NCBI GenBank assembly: GCA_048941265.1
Contig: JBHLNT010000006.1
Span: forward strand, 6,987 to 70,986
Direction: 5' to 3'
DNA from: Promethearchaeota archaeon
GTDB lineage: Archaea; Asgardarchaeota; Lokiarchaeia; Sigyniarchaeales; SOKP01
Length of the DNA: 64,000 bases
Shown here: in pieces, positions 6,890 to 33,082 of the stretch
Position numbering within the stretch: position 1 is the first letter of the stretch
Layout: each line of letters begins with the position of its first letter
Made by a program: the position numbers and the translations under genes
The notes under the pieces: model-generated
The model's input: only the letters and a program-made list of their open reading frames with translations
Told to the model about the DNA's origin: nothing
The model's database searches: none

Positions 6890-7198
6890 TTAAGCTGAGT
6901 ACCTCGTAAAAGCTCTAAATTGAGATGTATAATAATTTTAATTAGTTAAATTATTCAAGTAAAAAATTGGGTTTAAAAGTGTGATTGATTATTATAGTAT
7001 ATAAATTTATATTTTTAGGAGTTTATATAGTTTTTTTCTTTAAAAAGGATTCTTTTTAATTAATGAAGCTTATTAAGATTTTAATTTTAATAACATAAAT
7101 CATGGAAAATCTGGAAGAATTCTAGATAAATGGCTCTGCATTTTGAAGATAATTTCTTTTTATAAAGGGAATTATGATATAAAAAACTAAAATATTAT

Positions 7199-23126: not shown

Positions 23127-23211
23127 GAAAATTATTATTAAATGTTTCAAGGTTGAGTATCTTATTTTAAAACTTAGAAAATTTTAATATATTTAAATAT
23201 TAATATTGATC

Positions 23212-23838
23212 ATGAGCTCTATAATAACCTTAATTGTTGGCTCTCCAAGAAAAAATAGGAGTTGCAATTATTTAATTGACAAAGCAATTGAAGGGATAAA
23301 GTCAATAAGCGGGGAATTTGAAATAAAAAAGGTCCAAATTGCGGATTATCATATATCTCCTTGTAATGGTTGCGATCAATGTTTAAGACCTCCTAACGAT
23401 TGTCCTTTGTCAGAATACGACGATACAAAAAAATTAGAAGAACAAATATTAGGATCGTCAGCTCTGTTAATAGCTGCCCCAAATTACTTTGGTTCAGTTA
23501 GTTCCCAAATAAAAGTACTGATTGATCGTTCAAGACCATGGAAAATGAAAAATTATTTATTAAAAGATATGATTTTTGCACCAATGGCTTCTACAGGTCT
23601 TAGAAATGGGGGAGAAGGAGTGATTTCTGATTTAATCAATTTTGCTCTTATTCAAGGGATGATAATTGTAGGAAATGCACTCGGAAGCCCAGTTCTTGAA
23701 GGTAATATCCCGATTACTAGTCTTCAGAAATATAATATAAAAGAGTTTATAGGAAAAGGAGAAGTAGACGAATTAGCGGGAAAAATTGCTTTTGACCTAG
23801 GTAAAAGAATTGCTGAGCTACTAAAAAAAATGAAATAG
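23212..23838 (+). CDS. Iron-sulfur flavoprotein / NADPH-dependent FMN reductase family
   Basis: Flavodoxin-like N-terminus (LIVGSPRKNRS) plus the compact Cys motif CNGCDQCLRPPNDC (Cx2Cx2Cx6C), as in archaeal Isf proteins. Confidence 0.7.
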   Translation: MSSIITLIVGSPRKNRSCNYLIDKAIEGIKSISGEFEIKKVQIADYHISPCNGCDQCLRPPNDCPLSEYDDTKKLEEQILGSSALLIAAPNYFGSVSSQIKVLIDRSRPWKMKNYLLKDMIFAPMASTGLRNGGEGVISDLINFALIQGMIIVGNALGSPVLEGNIPITSLQKYNIKEFIGKGEVDELAGKIAFDLGKRIAELLKKMK

Positions 23839-23893: not shown

Positions 23894-24211
23894 TTACTCA
23901 TTATCATGGAAATCTATGCTACTCTTTGATTCTTCAGTATCTCTCTCTGATCCTTCTTTGGTGTATACCCCAATATATTTCTCTCCGGGCCATTTTGTAT
24001 TTACAATAATGCCAGATATAACTAAAATAGCAAAGATCACAAAATATGGAATTAAACTACCAGTAGGAAAAAATGACAAAAGAACGTCGACCCAAGATAC
24101 CATCCAAGCACCAATAGGTGTAACAAAAGGTTGTAATACTCTTAATATTAATCCAATAATATCTGCTATAATTTGTAAAAATTCAATCCTCTCATATTCT
24201 TGGAACCACAT
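23894..24211 (-). CDS. Small membrane protein
   Basis: 105 aa with 2-3 hydrophobic helices and an acidic C-terminal tail. Confidence 0.5.
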   Translation of the reverse strand: MWFQEYERIEFLQIIADIIGLILRVLQPFVTPIGAWMVSWVDVLLSFFPTGSLIPYFVIFAILVISGIIVNTKWPGEKYIGVYTKEGSERDTEESKSSIDFHDNE

Positions 24212-24226
24212 TTAAATACCCTCCTT

Positions 24227-24745
24227 TTATTTTTTCCCTCTCTCATATTTAATTTTTTCTCGATTTACAACAAAATCAACAAGATCATATGCTTTTAAAA
24301 TCACCGTTAAAAAGTAAATCCCCATATAAAGTAATATCATTTGCTGCAGATTTACTGTGATAATACCTAAATCCACTAATTCGAATTCTATTTCTAACGC
24401 TCCAGAAAATTTATAACTCCAAAGATATAAACAGTTTAAGATAATCTGGATTAATGCAAATACGCCCCGTCTTACGGATTGTTTGGGGGCAGAATATGCA
24501 AAAAACGCCGTCCCAGAGATGATAAGCCCAAAAGCCCAAACATAAAACAATATTAGATTGACTTGATGTTTATAAGCCTGTAATTCAACCCCCTCAACAT
24601 GAATCGTTTTTATCCAAGAAAAAGTCCAAAAAGGGATAAGTACAGTACTAGTGAAATATATCGCAGCTATTAAGGTTCCTCTAATAATATTTTTAATTTT
24701 AGCATTCTCTAATTGCTTAATAACTCTATCCTTAGTAAAACTCAT
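24227..24745 (-). CDS. Membrane protein (4-5 TM)
   Basis: 172 aa and hydrophobic throughout. Tightly spaced with its neighbours on the same strand. Confidence 0.55.
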   Translation of the reverse strand: MSFTKDRVIKQLENAKIKNIIRGTLIAAIYFTSTVLIPFWTFSWIKTIHVEGVELQAYKHQVNLILFYVWAFGLIISGTAFFAYSAPKQSVRRGVFALIQIILNCLYLWSYKFSGALEIEFELVDLGIITVNLQQMILLYMGIYFLTVILKAYDLVDFVVNREKIKYERGKK

Positions 24746-24748
24746 CTT

Positions 24749-25315
24749 TTATGTCACCTTCTCCTCAAATCCTCCTAAATCCATATCCTCTATATGTGCT
24801 TCAAATGAAATTAATCCCATGGAGTATTTAGCTGAGATATTTAATTCTTTTGCTTCAAAATCAAAAACGGGATCCCTTGTCAGATCTGCATTCAGAGCAA
24901 TATCGGTAAAATTTATATATTCTATATCATCTTTATCGATGGAAATTTTAAATTTTTTGCTCTCTCCAGCGGGGATGGTTGCAAACGACTTCTTATCTTC
25001 ATAGAGTTTCACTCCGGTTGAAACATTTCCGCTAGCTGTAACTCGATCATACACCAAATTTAATATTAACTCGACTTTTAGATCTTCCAAGTCAAAATAC
25101 CCCAAATTATTAATTTCAAATTCAACGTTAATCTCAAACGTATTAGGATCAAGAAATGGATTTCCCTCGTAATCCACATCAACATTAATATTTTTTTCAT
25201 TGGTTAATATGAGTGCCGCAGAATAGCCTCCTAAAAATGATACAAATGACATTGATGAAGCTAATATAAAGAGGAAGATTCGAACAATTAATCGAAAGAT
25301 TCTTTCTGGTCTCAT
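24749..25315 (-). CDS. N-terminally anchored beta-rich protein (LEA_2/WHy-like, tentative)
   Basis: An N-terminal TM helix is followed by alternating beta-strand patterns (NVDVDYEGNPFLDPNTFEINVEFEINNLGYFDLEDLKVELILNLVY). Confidence 0.4.
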   Translation of the reverse strand: MRPERIFRLIVRIFLFILASSMSFVSFLGGYSAALILTNEKNINVDVDYEGNPFLDPNTFEINVEFEINNLGYFDLEDLKVELILNLVYDRVTASGNVSTGVKLYEDKKSFATIPAGESKKFKISIDKDDIEYINFTDIALNADLTRDPVFDFEAKELNISAKYSMGLISFEAHIEDMDLGGFEEKVT

Positions 25316-25521
25316 AATTGTTCTCCTAAATTCTTTTTATAATTTTCATTTATTTTTATAAAATTTTATAGGTAAATATGATTAACACAATTATAGACTT
25401 TCATCTATTAAAATTTATATTTTTTCTAATTATTATAGAATGAATATTTTGATGTTTATACCCAAATGATTTCGGTTAAAATATAATAGTAAATAATAAA
25501 AAAAATGGTGTTAAATAAAAA

Positions 25522-25556
25522 GAAAACGGACGCAACCGCAAATCACTAATCTTCTA
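25522..25556 (-). promoter_or_regulatory. Candidate SECIS-like 3'-UTR hairpin downstream of 25593-25961
   Basis: RNA sense is UAGAAGAUUAGUGAUUUGCGGUUGCGUCCGUUUUC, a GC-rich island in AT-rich spacer 36 nt after the stop. It shares UAGAAGA...GAUUUGCGG..GCG.CCGUUU with the element at 26477-26510. Confidence 0.5.
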
Positions 25557-25592
25557 AAATTTATCAAGAATAGTTCATTTTTTTAAAAAAAT

Positions 25593-25961
25593 TTATGATT
25601 TTTCTATTTCCAATAAAAATGAGCCTTTATATTTGCCAAATAGTTTCCACGTTCTCGCGTTGATTTTAATATTGTTTGAATTGATTTCTAATTCATTTTT
25701 CAGATTTTTATCAATATACACTTCAAAACTATTAGTTCCAACATCGATTTGTTTCCACTTTTCAAAATGCGAATTCTTAGCAATTTTAGGTTTCTCAATT
25801 AATTGAACGATATCACTGCAGAAAGTTCCAGATCAAGATCTCGTAAAATACCTATAAATAACAAGTACTAACTCATCTAATCCATCTTTTTTAAGATATT
25901 TATTTTGTTTTTCCTGCAGTAAATTAAAGGCTTCTTCTGAAATTTCTAAATTTATAAATAA
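25593..25961 (-). CDS. HesB/IscA-like small protein with in-frame TGA (candidate Sec); no canonical start, so it may initiate at ATA 25955 or be a pseudogene
   Basis: One frame reads (L)FINLEISEEAFNLLQEKQNKYLKKDGLDELVLVIYRYFTRS[TGA 25833-25835]SGTFCSDIVQLIEKPKIAKNSHFEKWKQIDVGTNSFEVYIDKNLKNELEINSNNIKINARTWKLFGKYKGSFLLEIEKS. It is colinear with 26535-26915 and 26078-26422. TTA occupies the position of the paralog's TTG start. Confidence 0.5.
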
Positions 25962-26077
25962 TCACCCGTTCTTTATTCTATTATTGATTTGAATTGTTTT
26001 TTATATATAAATAAAGGAGAGTACTAAAAAAAATATGGTTTATATTTTAAAATTTCGAAAAAAAATTTATTTATAAT

Positions 26078-26422
26078 TTATCTTTTTTGCTCCTTTAAAA
26101 TAAGAGAAACATATTCCTCATGAAATTTCTTAGTTATTTGTATATCTATCAAAATTTCTGCTTTTTCTGGAAAATCACTTAATATTCTCTTTTCAATATA
26201 AATAGGAACAATAATACCATAACCATCATCGACTTCTCCATATTTTTCATAGGATGATGGGTCAATTTTTTCTTCTTTAAAATTCAACTCAAGAAAATAA
26301 TCTGAATATGAACCCGCACAAGCTTGTTTGCTAATTTGGTAAATAATGATCACAGGTTTTTCATTCTTAACCTTAATATTTTCACGAAGATAATCAATTG
26401 CTTCTTTTGTTAAAGAAAACAT
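26078..26422 (-). CDS. HesB/IscA-like small protein, Cys-containing paralog
   Basis: MFSLTKEAIDYLRENI...VIIIYQISKQACAGSYSDYFLELNF resembles the IscA/HesB N-terminal half (xITxxAxxxI ... GCSGxxY). It lacks the C-terminal CGCG motif. Confidence 0.6.
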   Translation of the reverse strand: MFSLTKEAIDYLRENIKVKNEKPVIIIYQISKQACAGSYSDYFLELNFKEEKIDPSSYEKYGEVDDGYGIIVPIYIEKRILSDFPEKAEILIDIQITKKFHEEYVSLILKEQKR

Positions 26423-26476
26423 CTTAAAATTCTTTTATTTAAATTTATTATATCTTTTTTTTTTTTGTTAATATAT

Positions 26477-26510
26477 GAAACGGTCGCTTCCGCAAATCGT
26501 TTTTCTTCTA
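26477..26510 (-). promoter_or_regulatory. Candidate SECIS-like 3'-UTR hairpin downstream of 26535-26915
   Basis: RNA sense is UAGAAGAAAAACGAUUUGCGGAAGCGACCGUUUC, 24 nt after the stop. It can fold as AAACG/CGUUU lower stem, asymmetric internal loop, UGC/GCG upper stem, and GGAA loop. Confidence 0.5.
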
Positions 26511-26534
26511 CCATTTTAAAGAAAAACTCATATT

Positions 26535-26915
26535 TTAACCATATACATCTTTTTGTTTCTTTATAAATAATAAACCAATTTGTTCACCGTTCAATTCCCC
26601 AATTGCAATATCGATAAATACTACTTTTTTTTCCTTGAATTCTGAGATCAAATCGTTTTCTATGTAAATTTCAATATCAGGGTTATCTTCAATCTCTTTC
26701 CATTGAAAAAAATTTTCCTTCTCATCAAGAACTTTATGCTTTTCCACCAATTCGATGACATTACCACAGAATGCCATCGTTCAATTTCCTCCAGAATAGT
26801 AAAAAATTGCTAGGACAAATTTATCTACCTGGTTCAATAACTCATTCTCTTCAAATGGTTTATTTTTATTGTTTATATAATCCAATGCTTTTTTTGAGAT
26901 TTGTATCTTAAACAA
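26535..26915 (-). CDS. HesB/IscA-like small protein with in-frame TGA (candidate selenocysteine at codon 45)
   Basis: TTG start at 26915 preceded by AGGTGG. It reads MFKIQISKKALDYINNKNKPFEENELLNQVDKFVLAIFYYSGGN[TGA 26781-26783]TMAFCGNVIELVEKHK... and continues into track ORF 26535-26777 in the same frame. The TGA aligns with Cys35 of the paralog 26078-26422. Confidence 0.65.
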
Positions 26916-27149
26916 AAACCACCTATTATAATACTTGAATAATTTATACTAGTGAAATTAATAGATAAATTTTTTCAAAAAGCTTTGGAATTCTCAATCT
27001 TTAAACATTAACTTCAAAAGCCAGAAGGATTTTTTTATGATCAATAATTACCAATACCATTAAGTAGAAATATCATTAGTTCTACATTTTTTTTAAAGAT
27101 TTAACAATAAACTGTTAAGTAAAAATTTAATTAAATTAGAGTGGAAATA

Positions 27150-30008
27150 ATGGATATAAACGCATATTCATTGGAAGTTCAAGATGTAGTTAACAAAATG
27201 GATACTTCATTGGAAACAGGATTATCGGAAAAAGAAGTAAATAGAAGAATTGAAGAATATGGTTTTAATGAGTTAAGAGAAACTAAAAAAATTTCAGCAT
27301 GGGAAATCTTTTTGAGTCAGTTTAAAGATTTTCTGGTTTACTTATTATTGTTTGCAATTGCTATATCCCTTATTGTTGGATTTTATGCACTCTCTGTTGG
27401 GGACGAACCTACTGAGTTCTTAGATGCTTTAGTAATTTTCATAATATTAATTGTCAATGCGGTTTTAGGATTTTATCAAGAGTATAAAGCTGAAAAAGCA
27501 TTAGAAAGCTTAAAAAGGATGGCCCCCCATAATGCTAAAGTTAAAAGAAATGGGATCATAAAAGAAATCGAGGTAAAAAATGTAGTGCCCGGAGATATCT
27601 TGCAATTGGATGAGGGCGATAAATTACCTGCTGATGCAAGGTTGACAAAAGCATATTCGTTATATATTGACGAAGCGATTCTTACTGGTGAATCTCAACC
27701 TGTTGGAAAAAATCTTAAATTAATTGAAGAAAAAACAATTCTCGCAGAACGTAAGAATATGGTATATAGTAATACAATAATTACTCGAGGTAACGGAGAA
27801 GCAATTGCTGTAGCAACCGGAATGCAGACAGAGATTGGAAAAATTGCTGAAAAAATTCAAGCAGAAGAACCTCAACCAAGCCCATTTCAAATTGAAGTTG
27901 ACCGTTTTGGAAAAACATTAGGAAAATTTATAATGATCATATGTTTTTTGGTTTTTTTAATAGAATTCTTTATAATCATATTAACTGAGGGTTTAGAATT
28001 TGGAAGGGAAGAAATTGATCATATAGTTGCCGCTTTAACGATAGCAATAAGTCTTGCAGTTTCTGCTGTACCAGAAGGATTAGTAGTTGTAATAACAGTA
28101 GTTATGAGTATTGGAATGAGAAAGATGGCAGATAGAAATGCATTGGTGAAGACTCTTACTGCTGTTGAAACTTTAGGACGGGTAAATATAATATGCTCAG
28201 ATAAAACAGGTACACTCACTAAAAATGAGATGACTATCGTAAAACTATTTCTCGGAGGAAATGAATATAATGTAGAGGGCGTGGGTTATAATATTGAGGG
28301 AAAAATTTTAAATGAATCTGGAAATACTGTGTCATTGGACTTACCCTATTTAAAGAGATTTTTAGAAGTAGGGAATTTTTGTAATAATTCAAATGTAATT
28401 GTTAATGAGGATGGAGTAAATACAGATGTTGTGGGAGACCCGACTGAGATCTGCTTTAAAATTTTAGCATTGAAAATGGGTCTTGATACAAAAGCTGAGA
28501 AGCTTAATGAAATCCCCTTTAGCTCTGATAGAAAAATGATGTCTGTTGCAATAAAAATCGATAATAAAATATATTCTTTTCTTAAAGGAGCACCCGATGT
28601 TTTATTAAAAAATGCAACAAAAGGACTTTATAATGGTGAAGAAAAACCAATTAAAGAGCTTATTGACACATTTCTTAAAAAAAATGAAGAGTATGGTAAG
28701 AATGCTTTAAGAGTATTAGGATTGGCATATAAACCGCTTAATGAAGTTTTTAATGAAGAAGATATGGAAAAAGATTATATATATCTCGGACTTGTAGGCA
28801 TTATTGATCCCGCTCGAGATGAGGTTAAAAAATCAATAGTTCAAGCAAGAATGGCAGGAATTCGAACTATTATGATCACAGGAGATCATAAAATTACCGC
28901 AATTGCGATTGCTAAAGAGATTGGTTTAACTGATTCCGATGATGCTATAACAGGTGCGGAGTTAGAGGAGATGTCGGATGAAAATTTAGCAAATCAGCTT
29001 CAAAATGTTGATGTATTTGCAAGAGTAACATCGGAGCATAAATTACGTATCCTTAAAGTCTTAAAGACTCAAGAAAATGTAGTTTCGATGACAGGTGATG
29101 GAGTTAACGATGCCCCCGCGGTAAAAGGAGCAAACGTTGGAGTTGCAATGGGCTTAAAGGGAACCGAAGTCACCCAAGAAGCGTCGGATATGATCCTTAT
29201 TGATGATAATTATGCTACCATTGTAAATGCGATCGAAGAAGGAAGGGGTATTTTTGAAACTACTAAAAGTTTCTTTAGATATATGTTAAGCGCGAATTTT
29301 GATGAAATAATCCTAATCTTAACAGCATGGATTCTTATGAAGCTTTTTGTTAATATTTATCTCGCGATACCCCTTGAACCTATACAAATATTATGGTTAA
29401 ATATTGCCACTGATGGTATTCCCGCGATGGTCTTGGGTTTAACTCCTACTGATCCTGATGTAATGAATTTTAAACCACGTAAAGGTTTTAATATGATTGC
29501 TGATATCAAGAAAGCTATTATATTTGTGGCTGTTTTTGCAGCTATTACTGATGTGGTATTATATGTTGTTTGTTGGTCAATTTTAATTCCTGCTTGGAGT
29601 GATCCAAATTCACCGTGGTATGATCCTCGTTTAGTCAATGGAACTACGATTTGGGGCGTGAAATATACAGCAGAGGAGTATCAAATTGGTGTAGTACAAA
29701 CGATTGTTTTTACTAATGTAGTCTTTTTCGAATTATTTTTTGTATTTTCATGTACTTCTGAATATAAACCAATGTGGGATTTCCCAAACAAACATTTATT
29801 CTGGGCCACAGCAATATCATTTGGATTACAAATTGCAATTTTATTTACACCACTTTGCATCGCATTCCACGCAGTACCGATGGATCGATGGTTTCACTGG
29901 TTAGCAATTTTTTTAGGTTCAATTTTTATTCTACCTGCGGAAGAAACAAGAAAATACTTTAAGAGAAGAAATCTTCAGAAAAGTCCACAAAATTTTGAGA
30001 TCTCATAA
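27150..30008 (+). CDS. P2-type (SERCA-like) cation-transporting P-type ATPase, copy 1
   Basis: TGES, PEGL, DKTGTLT, MITGDHKITA and GDGVNDAPA motifs plus 10 predicted TM segments. ATG at 27150 (the track uses GTG at 27141). Confidence 0.9.
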   Translation: MDINAYSLEVQDVVNKMDTSLETGLSEKEVNRRIEEYGFNELRETKKISAWEIFLSQFKDFLVYLLLFAIAISLIVGFYALSVGDEPTEFLDALVIFIILIVNAVLGFYQEYKAEKALESLKRMAPHNAKVKRNGIIKEIEVKNVVPGDILQLDEGDKLPADARLTKAYSLYIDEAILTGESQPVGKNLKLIEEKTILAERKNMVYSNTIITRGNGEAIAVATGMQTEIGKIAEKIQAEEPQPSPFQIEVDRFGKTLGKFIMIICFLVFLIEFFIIILTEGLEFGREEIDHIVAALTIAISLAVSAVPEGLVVVITVVMSIGMRKMADRNALVKTLTAVETLGRVNIICSDKTGTLTKNEMTIVKLFLGGNEYNVEGVGYNIEGKILNESGNTVSLDLPYLKRFLEVGNFCNNSNVIVNEDGVNTDVVGDPTEICFKILALKMGLDTKAEKLNEIPFSSDRKMMSVAIKIDNKIYSFLKGAPDVLLKNATKGLYNGEEKPIKELIDTFLKKNEEYGKNALRVLGLAYKPLNEVFNEEDMEKDYIYLGLVGIIDPARDEVKKSIVQARMAGIRTIMITGDHKITAIAIAKEIGLTDSDDAITGAELEEMSDENLANQLQNVDVFARVTSEHKLRILKVLKTQENVVSMTGDGVNDAPAVKGANVGVAMGLKGTEVTQEASDMILIDDNYATIVNAIEEGRGIFETTKSFFRYMLSANFDEIILILTAWILMKLFVNIYLAIPLEPIQILWLNIATDGIPAMVLGLTPTDPDVMNFKPRKGFNMIADIKKAIIFVAVFAAITDVVLYVVCWSILIPAWSDPNSPWYDPRLVNGTTIWGVKYTAEEYQIGVVQTIVFTNVVFFELFFVFSCTSEYKPMWDFPNKHLFWATAISFGLQIAILFTPLCIAFHAVPMDRWFHWLAIFLGSIFILPAEETRKYFKRRNLQKSPQNFEIS

Positions 30009-30223: not shown

Positions 30224-33082
30224 ATGACGATTAAAGAAGTATATCCTCATGCGATGGATATTAATGAAGTCGCAAAATCATTGGACACATTATTAAGCAC
30301 GGGAATATCAGACCAAGAAGCTGAGAAACGATTAGATGAATATGGTTTAAATGAATTAATCCAAAGAAAAAAAATCTCTCCGCTTGCTATTTTTATTGAG
30401 CAGTTTAAAGATTTTCTCGTTTATTTGCTATTTTTTGCAATCGGCATTTCGATAATTGTGGGCTTTTATGAACTTTCCAAGGGTGGATTTCCCTCAGAAT
30501 TCTTAGATGCCTTAGTTATTTTCATTATTTTAATTTTAAATGCAATTTTGGGATTTTATCAGGAATTTAAGGCGGAAAAATCCTTAGAAAGCTTGAAAAA
30601 ATTAGCCCCTCATTACGCTAAGGTCAAGAGAGGGGGAAAAATTAAACAAATCAGTGTTAAAGAAGTGGTGCCCGGAGATGTCATTCAACTAGACGAGGGT
30701 GAAAAAATACCTGCCGACGCTCGATTAACAAAGGCTTTCTCGTTATATGTAGATGAAGCTATTCTTACTGGAGAGTCAAAACCAGTTCATAAAAATTTAG
30801 ATTTAGTGGACAAAAAAACGATATTGGCAGATAGAAAGAATAGTATCTACAGCAACACTATAATAACAAGGGGAAACGGAGAGGCAATTGTTATCGCTAC
30901 AGGGATGCAAACTGAAGTTGGAAAAATTGCCGAAAAAATTCAAGAAGAAGAGCCAGAACCAAGTCCTTTTCAGCAAGAAGTTGATCGATTCGGAAGATTT
31001 CTTGGAAAAATGATTATGCTTGTATGTTTTCTCGTATTTGCTATAGAATTAGTAATTATTATAACCTTTGAGGGACTTAGATTTCAGGCAGAAGAAATAG
31101 AAGAGATTATAAATGCGTTAACAGTTGCGATAAGCCTTGCAGTTTCTGCCGTACCAGAAGGGTTGGTAGTAGTTATTACGGTTGTAATGAGTTTAGGAAT
31201 GAGACGAATGGCCGATAAAAATGCATTAGTAAAAACTCTTACTGCTGTTGAGACGTTAGGACGTGTAAACGTCATATGCTCAGATAAAACAGGAACATTG
31301 ACTAAAAACGAAATGACGGTCGTACGGATTTTTATCAATGATGAGGTCTATAAAGTTGATGGAGTAGGATATAATATAATTGGGAAAATCCTTGATGAAA
31401 ATAATAATGTAATACAAATGAATCTTAATCTGATGCGTTTTTTAGAAGTTAGTATGTTTTGCAATAATTCTAGTGTAAATATCATGAATGATGATGGTGA
31501 TACGGAAGTTGTGGGCGATCCTACAGAAATTTCGTTAAAAGTTTTGGCAATGAAAATGAATATAGCAACGAAAATAGAAAAAATCGATGAGATACCTTTT
31601 AACTCAGATAGAAAAATGATGACTGTTATCGCAAGAATTAATGGGGAATTATTTGCACTAATTAAAGGAGCACCAGATGTCTTATTGAAAAAAGCAAGTA
31701 AAATTTTATACCAGGATCAGGATGTACCAATAGAGAAAGCTGAAAAAATGATTTTGGAGCAAAATGAATATTTTGCAAAAGAAGCTTTACGAGTATTAGG
31801 AATAGCTTATAAACCTCTAATTGAAGGATATAATGAAGAAGAGGTTGAAAAAGATTTTATTTTCTTAGGTTTAGTTGGGATCATCGATCCTGCTAGAGAT
31901 GAAGTAAAAGGGTCTATAGAAGAAGCAAGAAATGCGGGCATCAGAACTATAATGATTACAGGAGATCATAAAATTACTGCAATTGCGATAGCTAGACAAA
32001 TTGGATTAACAGATAATGATGAGGCGATTACTGGGGCTGAATTGGAAGAAATGTCCGATGCTGAATTAGCGCATAGAGTTAAAAATACCGATGTTTTTGC
32101 AAGAGTAACTTCCGAACATAAACTTCGCATTTTAAACGCACTAAAAGCTGAACAAGATATTGTTTCCATGACAGGAGATGGAGTAAATGATGCCCCCGCC
32201 GTAAAAGGTGCAAATGTTGGAGTCGCGATGGGGCTTAAAGGAACAGAAGTTACCCAAGAAGCGGCAGATATGATCCTAATTGATGATAATTACACTACGA
32301 TCGTTAATGCTATTGAGGAAGGGAGAGGAATATTCGAAACTACTAAGAGTTTTTTTAGATACATGCTAAGTTGTAATTTTGACGAAATCATAATGATTTT
32401 AGTAGCATGGATTTTGATGAAAATTTATGTTAATGTTTATCTAGCTCAACCACTAGAAGCTATACAAATTTTATGGTTAAATGTTGCAACAGATGGAATT
32501 CCAGCAATGGTATTAGGATTAACTCCAACAGAACCTAATGTTATGGAACATAAGCCACGTAAAGGCTTTAATATGATTTCAGATATAAAAAAGGCAATCA
32601 TCTTTGCTGCAGTCTTTGCTGCAATAACAGATGTAGGATTATATGTAATAGTATGGTGGTTAATTAGAGGTCCTACAGGAGATGGGGGGATTTGGATGAA
32701 TATGGACCCCCGGCTAGTAAATGGAGCGACTTTCTGGGGAATTAAATATTCTGCAGAAGAATATCAAATAGCAGTGGCACAATCTATTGTTTTTACAAAT
32801 GTCGTATTTTTTGAATTATTTTTTGTATTTTCATGCACCTCTGAAAGTAGACCTGTATGGGAATTTCGAAATAAGCACTTATTTTGGGCCACTGGAATTT
32901 CATTCGCCTTACACTTATGTATTCTATTTACACCATTAGCTATTGCTTTCCATACAGTCCCAATGGATAGATGGTATCACTGGGCAGCTATCTTTTTAGG
33001 CTCAGTCTTTATAATTCCAGCTGAAGAAATGAGAAAATACTTAGTTAGACGAAAAAAAAAAGCAATGGAAATAATTTATTGA
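30224..33082 (+). CDS. P2-type (SERCA-like) cation-transporting P-type ATPase, copy 2
   Basis: Same motif set as copy 1 and colinear with it over the full length. Confidence 0.9.
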   Translation: MTIKEVYPHAMDINEVAKSLDTLLSTGISDQEAEKRLDEYGLNELIQRKKISPLAIFIEQFKDFLVYLLFFAIGISIIVGFYELSKGGFPSEFLDALVIFIILILNAILGFYQEFKAEKSLESLKKLAPHYAKVKRGGKIKQISVKEVVPGDVIQLDEGEKIPADARLTKAFSLYVDEAILTGESKPVHKNLDLVDKKTILADRKNSIYSNTIITRGNGEAIVIATGMQTEVGKIAEKIQEEEPEPSPFQQEVDRFGRFLGKMIMLVCFLVFAIELVIIITFEGLRFQAEEIEEIINALTVAISLAVSAVPEGLVVVITVVMSLGMRRMADKNALVKTLTAVETLGRVNVICSDKTGTLTKNEMTVVRIFINDEVYKVDGVGYNIIGKILDENNNVIQMNLNLMRFLEVSMFCNNSSVNIMNDDGDTEVVGDPTEISLKVLAMKMNIATKIEKIDEIPFNSDRKMMTVIARINGELFALIKGAPDVLLKKASKILYQDQDVPIEKAEKMILEQNEYFAKEALRVLGIAYKPLIEGYNEEEVEKDFIFLGLVGIIDPARDEVKGSIEEARNAGIRTIMITGDHKITAIAIARQIGLTDNDEAITGAELEEMSDAELAHRVKNTDVFARVTSEHKLRILNALKAEQDIVSMTGDGVNDAPAVKGANVGVAMGLKGTEVTQEAADMILIDDNYTTIVNAIEEGRGIFETTKSFFRYMLSCNFDEIIMILVAWILMKIYVNVYLAQPLEAIQILWLNVATDGIPAMVLGLTPTEPNVMEHKPRKGFNMISDIKKAIIFAAVFAAITDVGLYVIVWWLIRGPTGDGGIWMNMDPRLVNGATFWGIKYSAEEYQIAVAQSIVFTNVVFFELFFVFSCTSESRPVWEFRNKHLFWATGISFALHLCILFTPLAIAFHTVPMDRWYHWAAIFLGSVFIIPAEEMRKYLVRRKKKAMEIIY

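Follow-up and report, generated by a model that had tools for sequence, protein, structure and literature searches.

Probable Lokiarchaeota-type SECIS elements with an accessory GC-rich helix in a tandem trio of predicted IscA/HesB-like genes from a Promethearchaeota archaeon

Introduction

The selenocysteine insertion sequence (SECIS) elements of Lokiarchaeota, termed lokiSECIS, have been defined as an AUGA followed by a 9-bp stem with an 11-nt loop and then GA, or rarely AA; the first five positions of the loop favor A, and its last position is an ultraconserved G that is usually preceded by A (Mariotti 2016, PMC4989117). Euryarchaeal SECIS elements, as described in the same paper, carry an invariant GAA_A asymmetric bulge between a GC-rich lower stem of about 10 bp and a GC upper stem of 3 bp, and no SBP2 is known in Lokiarchaeota. 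Seven Asgard selenoprotein families have been listed in a 2024 survey (PMC11227280) and a 2026 review (PMC13188914), and a further RNA architecture, the k-junction, has been defined as a kink-turn (k-turn) with a third helix inserted in its non-bulged strand (PMC4005666). Here, we analyze a 64,000-nt stretch of a Promethearchaeota (Asgard) contig (the window: GenBank assembly GCA_048941265.1, contig JBHLNT010000006.1, forward-strand positions 6,987 to 70,986), whose minus strand encodes three small paralogous genes arranged head to tail in the order A, B, C. An initial annotation of this sequence had pointed to a conserved GC-rich block in the 3' untranslated regions (UTRs) of A and C, the two paralogs with an in-frame TGA, and had labeled it a SECIS candidate. 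That label holds up: the blocks are very probably the 3' portion of a Lokiarchaeota-type SECIS, with its eukaryote-like kink-turn design, in the 3' UTRs of selenoprotein genes. This type of SECIS is known, and what is new is the predicted IscA/HesB-like gene family that carries it, which is absent from published Asgard selenoproteomes.

Results

A covarying core hairpin in two 3' UTRs

The two GC-rich blocks lie exactly where they had been placed, at 26510-26477 (UAGAAGAAAAACGAUUUGCGGAAGCGACCGUUUC), 24 nt after the TAA stop codon of paralog A, and at 25556-25522 (UAGAAGAUUAGUGAUUUGCGGUUGCGUCCGUUUUC), 36 nt after the TAA of paralog C. Their shared motif, GATTTGCGGNNGCGNCCGTTT, has only two sites in the window when up to three mismatches are allowed, and matches in none of 100 shuffled sequences. 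The blocks are conserved as claimed, but they are not the whole of the conserved element: an alignment of the two 3' UTRs shows that conservation reaches about 20-35 nt further 5', nearly to the stop codons. AUGA begins 3 nt (A) or 14 nt (C) past the stop, so that most of the core lies 5' of the blocks, and the in-frame UGA lies 252 nt (A) or 257 nt (C) upstream. Each copy contains two 9-nt segments that are complementary to one another, and these segments differ between A and C by compensatory changes (Table 1). Two of the short stretches that had been listed as shared can now be placed: UAGAAGA comprises the end of the loop and the start of the 3' stem strand, and the GA within GAUUUGCGG is the GA of the predicted kink-turn.

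To describe variation in this core hairpin we used an alignment of 18 distinct orthologous elements (A4), drawn from the window and 12 other loci; orthologs of paralogs A and C are referred to as groups A and C. The main stem is 93.8% paired in this set, with four pairs changing on both sides, and its covariation score of 0.208, against 0.090 in shuffles, is reached by none of 500 shuffled alignments. Sliding the 3' partner by one to three columns lowers pairing to 45-62%. Both window copies, and 17 of the 18 family elements, have AUGA before the stem and GA after it, while one ortholog has AGGA. The pair adjoining this core is often non-canonical (G.G, C.C, A.C or U.U), as is expected beside tandem sheared G.A pairs. 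When the family is aligned jointly with five SECIS elements of FrhD/VhuD genes, described below, all nine stem pairs covary, and the terminal G of the loop is invariant in all 23 elements. RNAalifold, applied to group C alone, returns exactly the main stem and a CGG/CCG hairpin. A short AAA/UUU helix next to the predicted kink-turn is uninformative, all three of its pairs being invariant, and it has no equivalent in the FrhD/VhuD elements.

One locus combines features of the two groups. In L007 (596-683), an A-type protein (SSRS-U-TSIFCGNV) is followed by a C-type SECIS stem (ACUAAUCUU/AAGAUUGGU), the 5' core reads AGGA rather than AUGA, and the lower stem is shifted (GGAUAAAA/UUUUAUCU) so as to span the stop codon. 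This mixture suggests, at the level of sequence, that SECIS elements have been exchanged between paralogs.

Restriction to TGA-containing genes and agreement with FrhD/VhuD elements

In the 13 related loci retrieved for comparison with the window, the same UTR element follows every A and every C ortholog and no B ortholog. Two covariance models, R1 built from the family only and R2 from the family plus VhuD elements, each return just these two sites when run on the window. They score 78-83 bits (E about 1e-17), the runners-up reach 12-14 bits with E > 0.6 (R2 with filters off), and no match lies after the Cys paralog. Motif and covariance-model scans of the window agree with the earlier remark that the 3' spacer of this paralog lacks the element. 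The exact GC expression TTTGCGG..GCG..CCG has no match in the other loci, outside the window; the loop and flanks vary, and CGG/CCG alone is fixed.

The positive control started from an FrhD/VhuD selenoprotein of Lokiarchaeial origin, taken from the supplementary data of PMC11227280, whose homologues led to eight loci on related metagenomic contigs. Model R1, which was built without these sequences, ranks the SECIS just downstream of FrhD/VhuD first in all five loci searched (E 0.0016-0.047). The FrhD/VhuD 3' UTRs read UAA-ACCGA-N4-5-AUGA, a 9-bp stem, an 11-nt loop ending in UAG or GAG, GA, N2-3, a GC minihairpin (ACC-UUGCGA-UGGU, ACCAU-UAGCU-AUGGU or ACCC-UGCAA-GGGU) and UCGG, with CCGA/UCGG forming an enclosing lower stem. 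The GC hairpin that first drew attention to this locus thus appears to be one module of an architecture used by known Loki SECIS elements.

A predicted third helix and lower stem

Between the GA and the minihairpin of the IscA/HesB-like family lies a linker of constant length (4 nt) in which UUU never varies. The minihairpin itself, CGG-N6-8-CCG, is the CGG/CCG stem with a 6-nt loop that the initial annotation had offered as an alternative fold, and it survives here as an accessory third helix. Its CGG/CCG pairs never vary within the family, and the family alone therefore says nothing for or against pairing. In the joint alignment with FrhD/VhuD elements, the minihairpin is 92% paired, with both-sided changes at three of four pairs; a GC in the middle of the loop is frequent in each of the two gene families, which have the loop sequence UUGCGA in common.

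Helix I of group A joins the 8 nt directly 5' of the stop codon (GUAUAUGG, made up of a Val codon, a Tyr codon and two bases of a Gly codon, the first and second) to a YCAURUAY strand that lies 3' of the minihairpin after a 2-nt spacer. This helix I is 98.9% paired, and its changes are one-sided and wobble-compatible, bar one mismatch. An alternative register, AUAUGA/UCAUAU, would pair the AUG of AUGA; it is 80% paired, compared with 98.9% when the end of the open reading frame (ORF) is the partner, and is disfavored for the group, though the window copy may adopt it. Ortholog L002 alone folds as a three-way junction in the ORF-end register (z -3.4), and the minimum-free-energy folds of three of the four distinct VhuD elements show the same three-way junction. 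The resulting order of helix II, GA, UUUN, minihairpin, UU and the 3' strand of helix I has, as a secondary structure, the topology of a k-junction. This three-helix layout is possibly the one feature of these elements that is under-described in the literature.

An alternative view would assign the SECIS function to the main hairpin and treat the GC minihairpin as an unrelated 3'-end signal, such as a terminator or an element of mRNA stability or processing. The minihairpin does close the conserved block on its distal side, and in group C it is followed by a U-rich tract, CCGUUUUCUUUUU, of the oligo-U kind that archaeal termination uses. Yet group A elements continue with UUCCAUAUAC, which has no U-run, and there the minihairpin is enclosed by the lower stem. 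The fixed spacing from GA, with its invariant UUU, and the equivalent internal placement of the GC minihairpin in FrhD/VhuD SECIS elements also speak against a separate signal, as do the lack of any terminator-like site in 25300-27200 and of any further occurrence of the motif in 64 kb of gene-dense sequence. We regard a 3'-end signal as improbable.

A second alternative, which was the fold first proposed, takes the GC-rich block alone as a euryarchaeal-style SECIS with an AAACG/CGUUU lower stem, an asymmetric internal loop, a UGC/GCG upper stem and a tetraloop. Folded by itself, the block of the first copy (A) does adopt this structure as its minimum-free-energy fold (-6.4 kcal/mol, z -1.4), 79.9% of the cells in the alignment of 18 elements can pair, and a 3-bp G+C apical helix is reminiscent of euryarchaeal SECIS elements. 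The third copy (C), however, forms only CGG/CCG (z -0.1), and neither block folds better than shuffles. The level of pairing among orthologs is reached by 500 of 500 column shuffles and comes with no excess covariation, the UGC/GCG stem is broken in group C orthologs (UAC or UUC), and the proposed lower stem competes for the 3' strand of the strongly covarying main helix and for the G of the invariant GA. Both the 10-bp GC-rich lower stem and the GAA_A bulge are absent, the latter as the initial annotation had itself remarked. A Methanococcus-like two-helix SECIS made by the GC hairpin is accordingly the wrong description of these blocks, and we give it very little credence; the evidence favors instead the Lokiarchaeota-type element of which the blocks form the 3' part.

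In-frame TGA codons as probable selenocysteine codons

In the protein alignment, the TGAs of paralogs A and C fall on the Cys of paralog B. No ortholog in group A or group C has lost its TGA, even among representatives of separate 50%-identity clusters, and in all orthologs the ORF is conserved on both sides; the conserved motifs are GG[NS]-U-TMAFCG, TRS-U-SGTFC and MRS-U-SGSFCQ, where U marks selenocysteine (Sec). Many public gene calls show W at this position, which we infer to be TGA read as Trp, the codon being TGA in the retrieved loci, and others begin just after it as products of 65-90 aa. At paralogs A and C, public annotation holds an 80-aa C-terminal ORF (P0012) alone, or no gene is called; the C-terminal ORF of paralog A is identical to ACFFHV_02240, and the paralog B protein is identical to P0001 (ACFFHV_02235), both being encoded on a 76.9-kb contig of a Promethearchaeota metagenome-assembled genome. 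TGA is the ordinary stop for six of 50 long ORFs in the window, which argues for the standard code without global reassignment. Judging from its relatives, the source organism probably uses Sec: GCA_004524515, which contains locus L011, has been classed as a Sec-using Lokiarchaeon with SelD, FrhA, FrhD (two), and HdrA (two) selenoproteins (PMC11227280).

That the TGAs are not Sec codons, with A and C being pseudogenes, split genes or carriers of a reassigned TGA and the UTR block a paralog-specific regulatory RNA or a leftover of duplication, would accord with the short public annotation and with a window copy C in which the TTG start of its orthologs is missing and the stem contains a U.U mismatch. 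It is scarcely credible, given that the TGA stays at one codon position within conserved protein sequence throughout the orthologs of both groups, aligns with Cys and ends other long ORFs in the window, and that the UTR element matches the SECIS of bona fide selenoprotein genes.

Individual loci depart from these patterns in several ways. Gene A of L014 (466-490) ends in UGA (GGA UGA AAA AUGA), 3 nt 5' of the SECIS AUGA, while the other A orthologs with a called stop end in UAA; presumably this near UGA is read as a stop and the UGA about 250 nt upstream as Sec. The group C ortholog of L010 (459-821) carries, close to the N-terminus, one more in-frame TGA (ISE-U-ASNLL) at a position that is K, S, E or R in other orthologs; an additional Sec, a mutation and a sequencing error are all conceivable explanations. 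In the window, the TTG start found in orthologs of paralog C is replaced by TTT at 25958-25956: the start region (25961-25944, minus strand) reads AGGTGA-TAA-TTG in orthologs, with a Shine-Dalgarno-like GGTGA ahead of TTG, and GGGTGA-TTA-TTT-ATA in the window. Together with the copy-specific U.U mismatch in its SECIS (25570/25549 region), this altered start hints that copy C is decaying, uses a non-canonical ATA start or contains assembly errors.

A small protein family with a predicted IscA/HesB fold

The family is small: it comprises 39 clusters at 90% identity, and at 50% identity it accounts for 49 of 1.84 billion cluster representatives. Pfam reports no significant domain for any of the three paralogs, a profile search of solved-structure sequences returned nothing significant, and NCBIfam gives weak matches only, to SufA, IscA_HesB_Se and 'CC/Se motif family (seleno)protein'. 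TIGR01911 matches none of 22 members at E up to 0.1, and the family profile just reaches a W-C-G-P protein (E 7e-4). An AlphaFold model of paralog B, made from a 22-sequence alignment, has a pLDDT of 83, and its top Foldseek matches in the PDB are IscA (1r94/1s98), SufA (2d2a) and 2p2e; the IscA and SufA chains match it with a probability of 0.94-1.00 and a query-normalised TM-score of 0.42-0.56. The Cys/Sec position falls in a low-confidence loop in the N-terminal half (residues 33-39 of the model), which we take to correspond to the loop carrying IscA Cys35. The modeled fold thus points to membership in the IscA/HesB fold superfamily, with weak matches at the sequence level, and the proteins would be small IscA/HesB-fold proteins with Sec where the middle paralog has Cys. 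This family is not among the seven listed for Asgard archaea; the genome GCA_004524515 carries the trio cluster and was included in the survey of PMC11227280, yet the family was not listed.

Gene neighborhood

The trio lies between a divergent tandem pair of P-type ATPase genes and a group of small genes that ends with a convergent FMN reductase (Table 1). This order, of P-type ATPase, A, B, C, small membrane proteins and FMN reductase, is kept in related loci, L011, L009 and L008 included; such a setting might point to a function of the IscA-like proteins in metal or redox metabolism. In the spacer between B and C (about 26052-26038, minus strand), orthologs conserve a block, UUUUAAAAUAUAAAC, followed about 10 nt further on by UUUUUAGUA, at the same position in L001-L014. 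By its sequence, this block resembles a TATA/BRE promoter of the archaeal type that could drive gene C; were that so, A, B and C would each be transcribed separately and have separate 3' UTRs.

Table 1. Coordinates of the genes and RNA features discussed in the text (window numbering)
Feature	Position	Strand	Details
Paralog A	26535..26915	-	Predicted IscA/HesB-like selenoprotein gene; TTG start 26915-26913; stop TAA 26537-26535
Paralog A Sec codon	26783-26781	-	In-frame TGA; motif GGN-U-TMAFC
SECIS A, complete predicted three-helix element	26471..26546	-	
SECIS A helix I	26546-26539 with 26478-26471	-	GUAUAUGG (last ORF codons) paired with UCAUAUAU
SECIS A core hairpin	26497..26531	-	AUGA 26531-26528; GA 26498-26497
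SECIS A core stem	26527-26519 with 26507-26499	-	5' strand GUUUUUCUU; 3' strand AAGAAAAAC
SECIS A core loop	26518-26508	-	11 nt, UAAAAUGGUAG
SECIS A linker	26496-26493	-	UUUG, 5' of the minihairpin
SECIS A third helix	26481..26492	-	GC minihairpin CGG-AAGCGA-CCG; center of the first block of the initial annotation
Paralog B (Cys form)	26078..26422	-	Motif KQA-C-AGSY; no SECIS in 3' spacer
Paralog C	25593..25961 (start about 25961)	-	Second predicted selenoprotein gene; stop TAA 25595-25593
Paralog C Sec codon	25835-25833	-	In-frame TGA; motif TRS-U-SGTFC
SECIS C core hairpin	25543..25578	-	AUGA 25578-25575; GA 25544-25543
SECIS C core stem	25574-25566 with 25553-25545	-	5' strand ACUAUUCUU; 3' strand AAGAUUAGU; one U.U mismatch, absent in orthologs
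SECIS C core loop	25565-25554	-	12 nt, GAUAAAUUUUAG
SECIS C linker	25542-25539	-	UUUG, 5' of the minihairpin
SECIS C third helix	25527..25538	-	GC minihairpin CGG-UUGCGU-CCG
SECIS C U-rich tract	25526-25513	-	Could pair with the A-run 25585-25579
Type-II P-type cation ATPases	27141-30008, 30224-33082	+	Tandem pair, divergent from the trio
Three small proteins	24749-25315, 24227-24745, 23894-24211	-	No Pfam match; putative membrane proteins by hydrophobic sequence
NADPH-dependent FMN reductase	23206-23838	+	Convergent

Discussion

We propose that in the Lokiarchaeota-type elements of this locus, the AUGA and GA that flank the 9-bp helix would build a kink-turn through tandem sheared G.A pairs, with the helix capped by an A-rich loop of 11-12 nt ending in AG. 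Beyond the GA, the invariant UUUN linker would lead into the 3-bp G+C hairpin (CGG-N6-8-CCG), which may stack coaxially, and in paralog A the strand beyond this minihairpin would pair with the 8 nt that precede the stop codon, closing a three-way junction with k-junction topology. Such a structure would recruit the Sec-specific elongation machinery, and the UGA about 250 nt upstream would be read as selenocysteine.

Several observations weigh against this model or parts of it. Pairing of the minihairpin is drawn from five FrhD/VhuD elements of four lineages, for two of which the MAFFT register is imperfect. The minimum-free-energy fold of window copy A is a three-way junction in the alternative register, pairing the AUG of AUGA (z -3.5). 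In L011 (2791-2869), AAA-AUGA of the closest relatives is changed to AAC-AUGA and CCAUAUAC to CCAUGUAC, and the two changes turn an A.A mismatch into C-G in that same register; this compensatory change could be due to chance, or could mark a second conformation that sequesters the SECIS core. For group C, RNAalifold gives no consensus lower stem, and there are A-run/U-run possibilities only. At the one Sec-PrxL locus taken as a control, the 128-nt spacer has no recognizable element, and R2 finds a weak site inside the gene. No Rfam family reaches its gathering score in the window, and no Rfam SECIS family matches 25300-27100 at E up to 10, a threshold at which the region shows chance-level matches to snoRNAs and miRNAs only. 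Finally, the 64-kb window contains no tRNA-Sec, other tRNA or Sec machinery.

A PrxL gene also provides an observation in its own right. In L023 (755-905), a Prx-like Sec gene (RDIS-U-PFCRWH) ends in UGA and is followed by a perfect 9-bp long-range helix, GAUUUGGUA...UACCAAAUC, that encloses about 50 nt; the region has no canonical AUGA/9-bp/GA that we could recognize, and the PrxL SECIS may be of another form.

A bolder proposal joins two claims: that the Loki SECIS is a k-junction whose third helix is needed for Sec insertion, and that the trio represents an eighth, missed Asgard selenoprotein family. We offer this combination tentatively, and consider it rather unlikely to hold as a whole. 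Under it, the third helix would either clamp the weak A/U lower helix coaxially or provide a docking site for an archaeal SECIS-binding factor, and the minihairpin could be the counterpart of the euryarchaeal 3-bp all-GC apical helix, a correspondence that, if true, would link the two archaeal SECIS types.

For annotation, our analysis means that A and C are to be treated as full-length predicted selenoproteins rather than as an 80-aa fragment or a blank. The locus also amounts to a natural experiment, in which Sec, Cys and Sec paralogs are adjacent and the RNA signal is found on the Sec genes only. The invariant 3' linker and minihairpin, at a position common to the FrhD/VhuD elements, suggest that the Loki SECIS model should include the third helix. 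Doing so would improve genome scans for selenoproteins and would define a concrete RNA surface for an archaeal SECIS-binding protein, which bears on the origin of the eukaryotic system.

Comparison with known systems

The elements described here agree most closely with lokiSECIS (PMC4989117), a type I structure resembling the eukaryotic SECIS (Huang et al. 2024, PMC11227280). Like lokiSECIS, they follow closely on the stop codon in the 3' UTRs of Asgard selenoprotein genes, both window copies match the AUGA, the 9-bp stem, the A-rich loop ending in AG and the GA point by point, and the three-helix layout is the same as in the lokiSECIS of FrhD/VhuD. They differ in belonging to a gene family outside the published lists, in the 12-nt loop of copy C and its orthologs, one nucleotide longer, and in the invariance of the 3' linker and minihairpin (GA-UUUN-CGG..CCG); the main text of PMC4989117 and of PMC11227280 does not mention a 3'-side minihairpin. 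With the eukaryotic SECIS (a kink-turn bound by SBP2; Rfam SECIS_1) they share the AUGA...AA...GA core logic, the 3' UTR location and the predicted action on a distant upstream UGA, whereas their upper helix is shorter, an extra helix is present on the 3' strand and Rfam gives no match at the threshold used above. Euryarchaeal SECIS elements (Methanococcus/Methanopyrus) also lie in 3' UTRs, and their apical helix resembles the 3-bp all-G/C helix with a variable loop seen here; the GAA_A bulge and GC-rich lower stem have no equivalent, the lower stem first proposed for these blocks being A/U-rich.

The k-junction of the TPP riboswitch (Wang et al. 2014, PMC4005666) has the same strand topology: one helix starts from tandem G.A pairs, the bulged strand has a loop, and the non-bulged strand carries a third helix that separates these pairs from the canonical helix. 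In the elements described here the linkers are longer (4 nt and 2 nt, with 9 nt on the bulged strand), the function is another, and the topology is that of a secondary structure alone. At the protein level, the HesB-like selenoprotein (TIGR01911) has a UxGP motif, in contrast to the U-[TS]-x-x-F-C of this family, or C-A-G-S-Y in its Cys form, which TIGR01911 does not match. The A-type Fe-S carriers IscA and SufA share the predicted fold and differ in their C-terminal CGC motif, which is lacking here. A further difference from the HesB-like selenoprotein and from IscA and SufA is the arrangement of this family as a Sec/Cys/Sec tandem trio.

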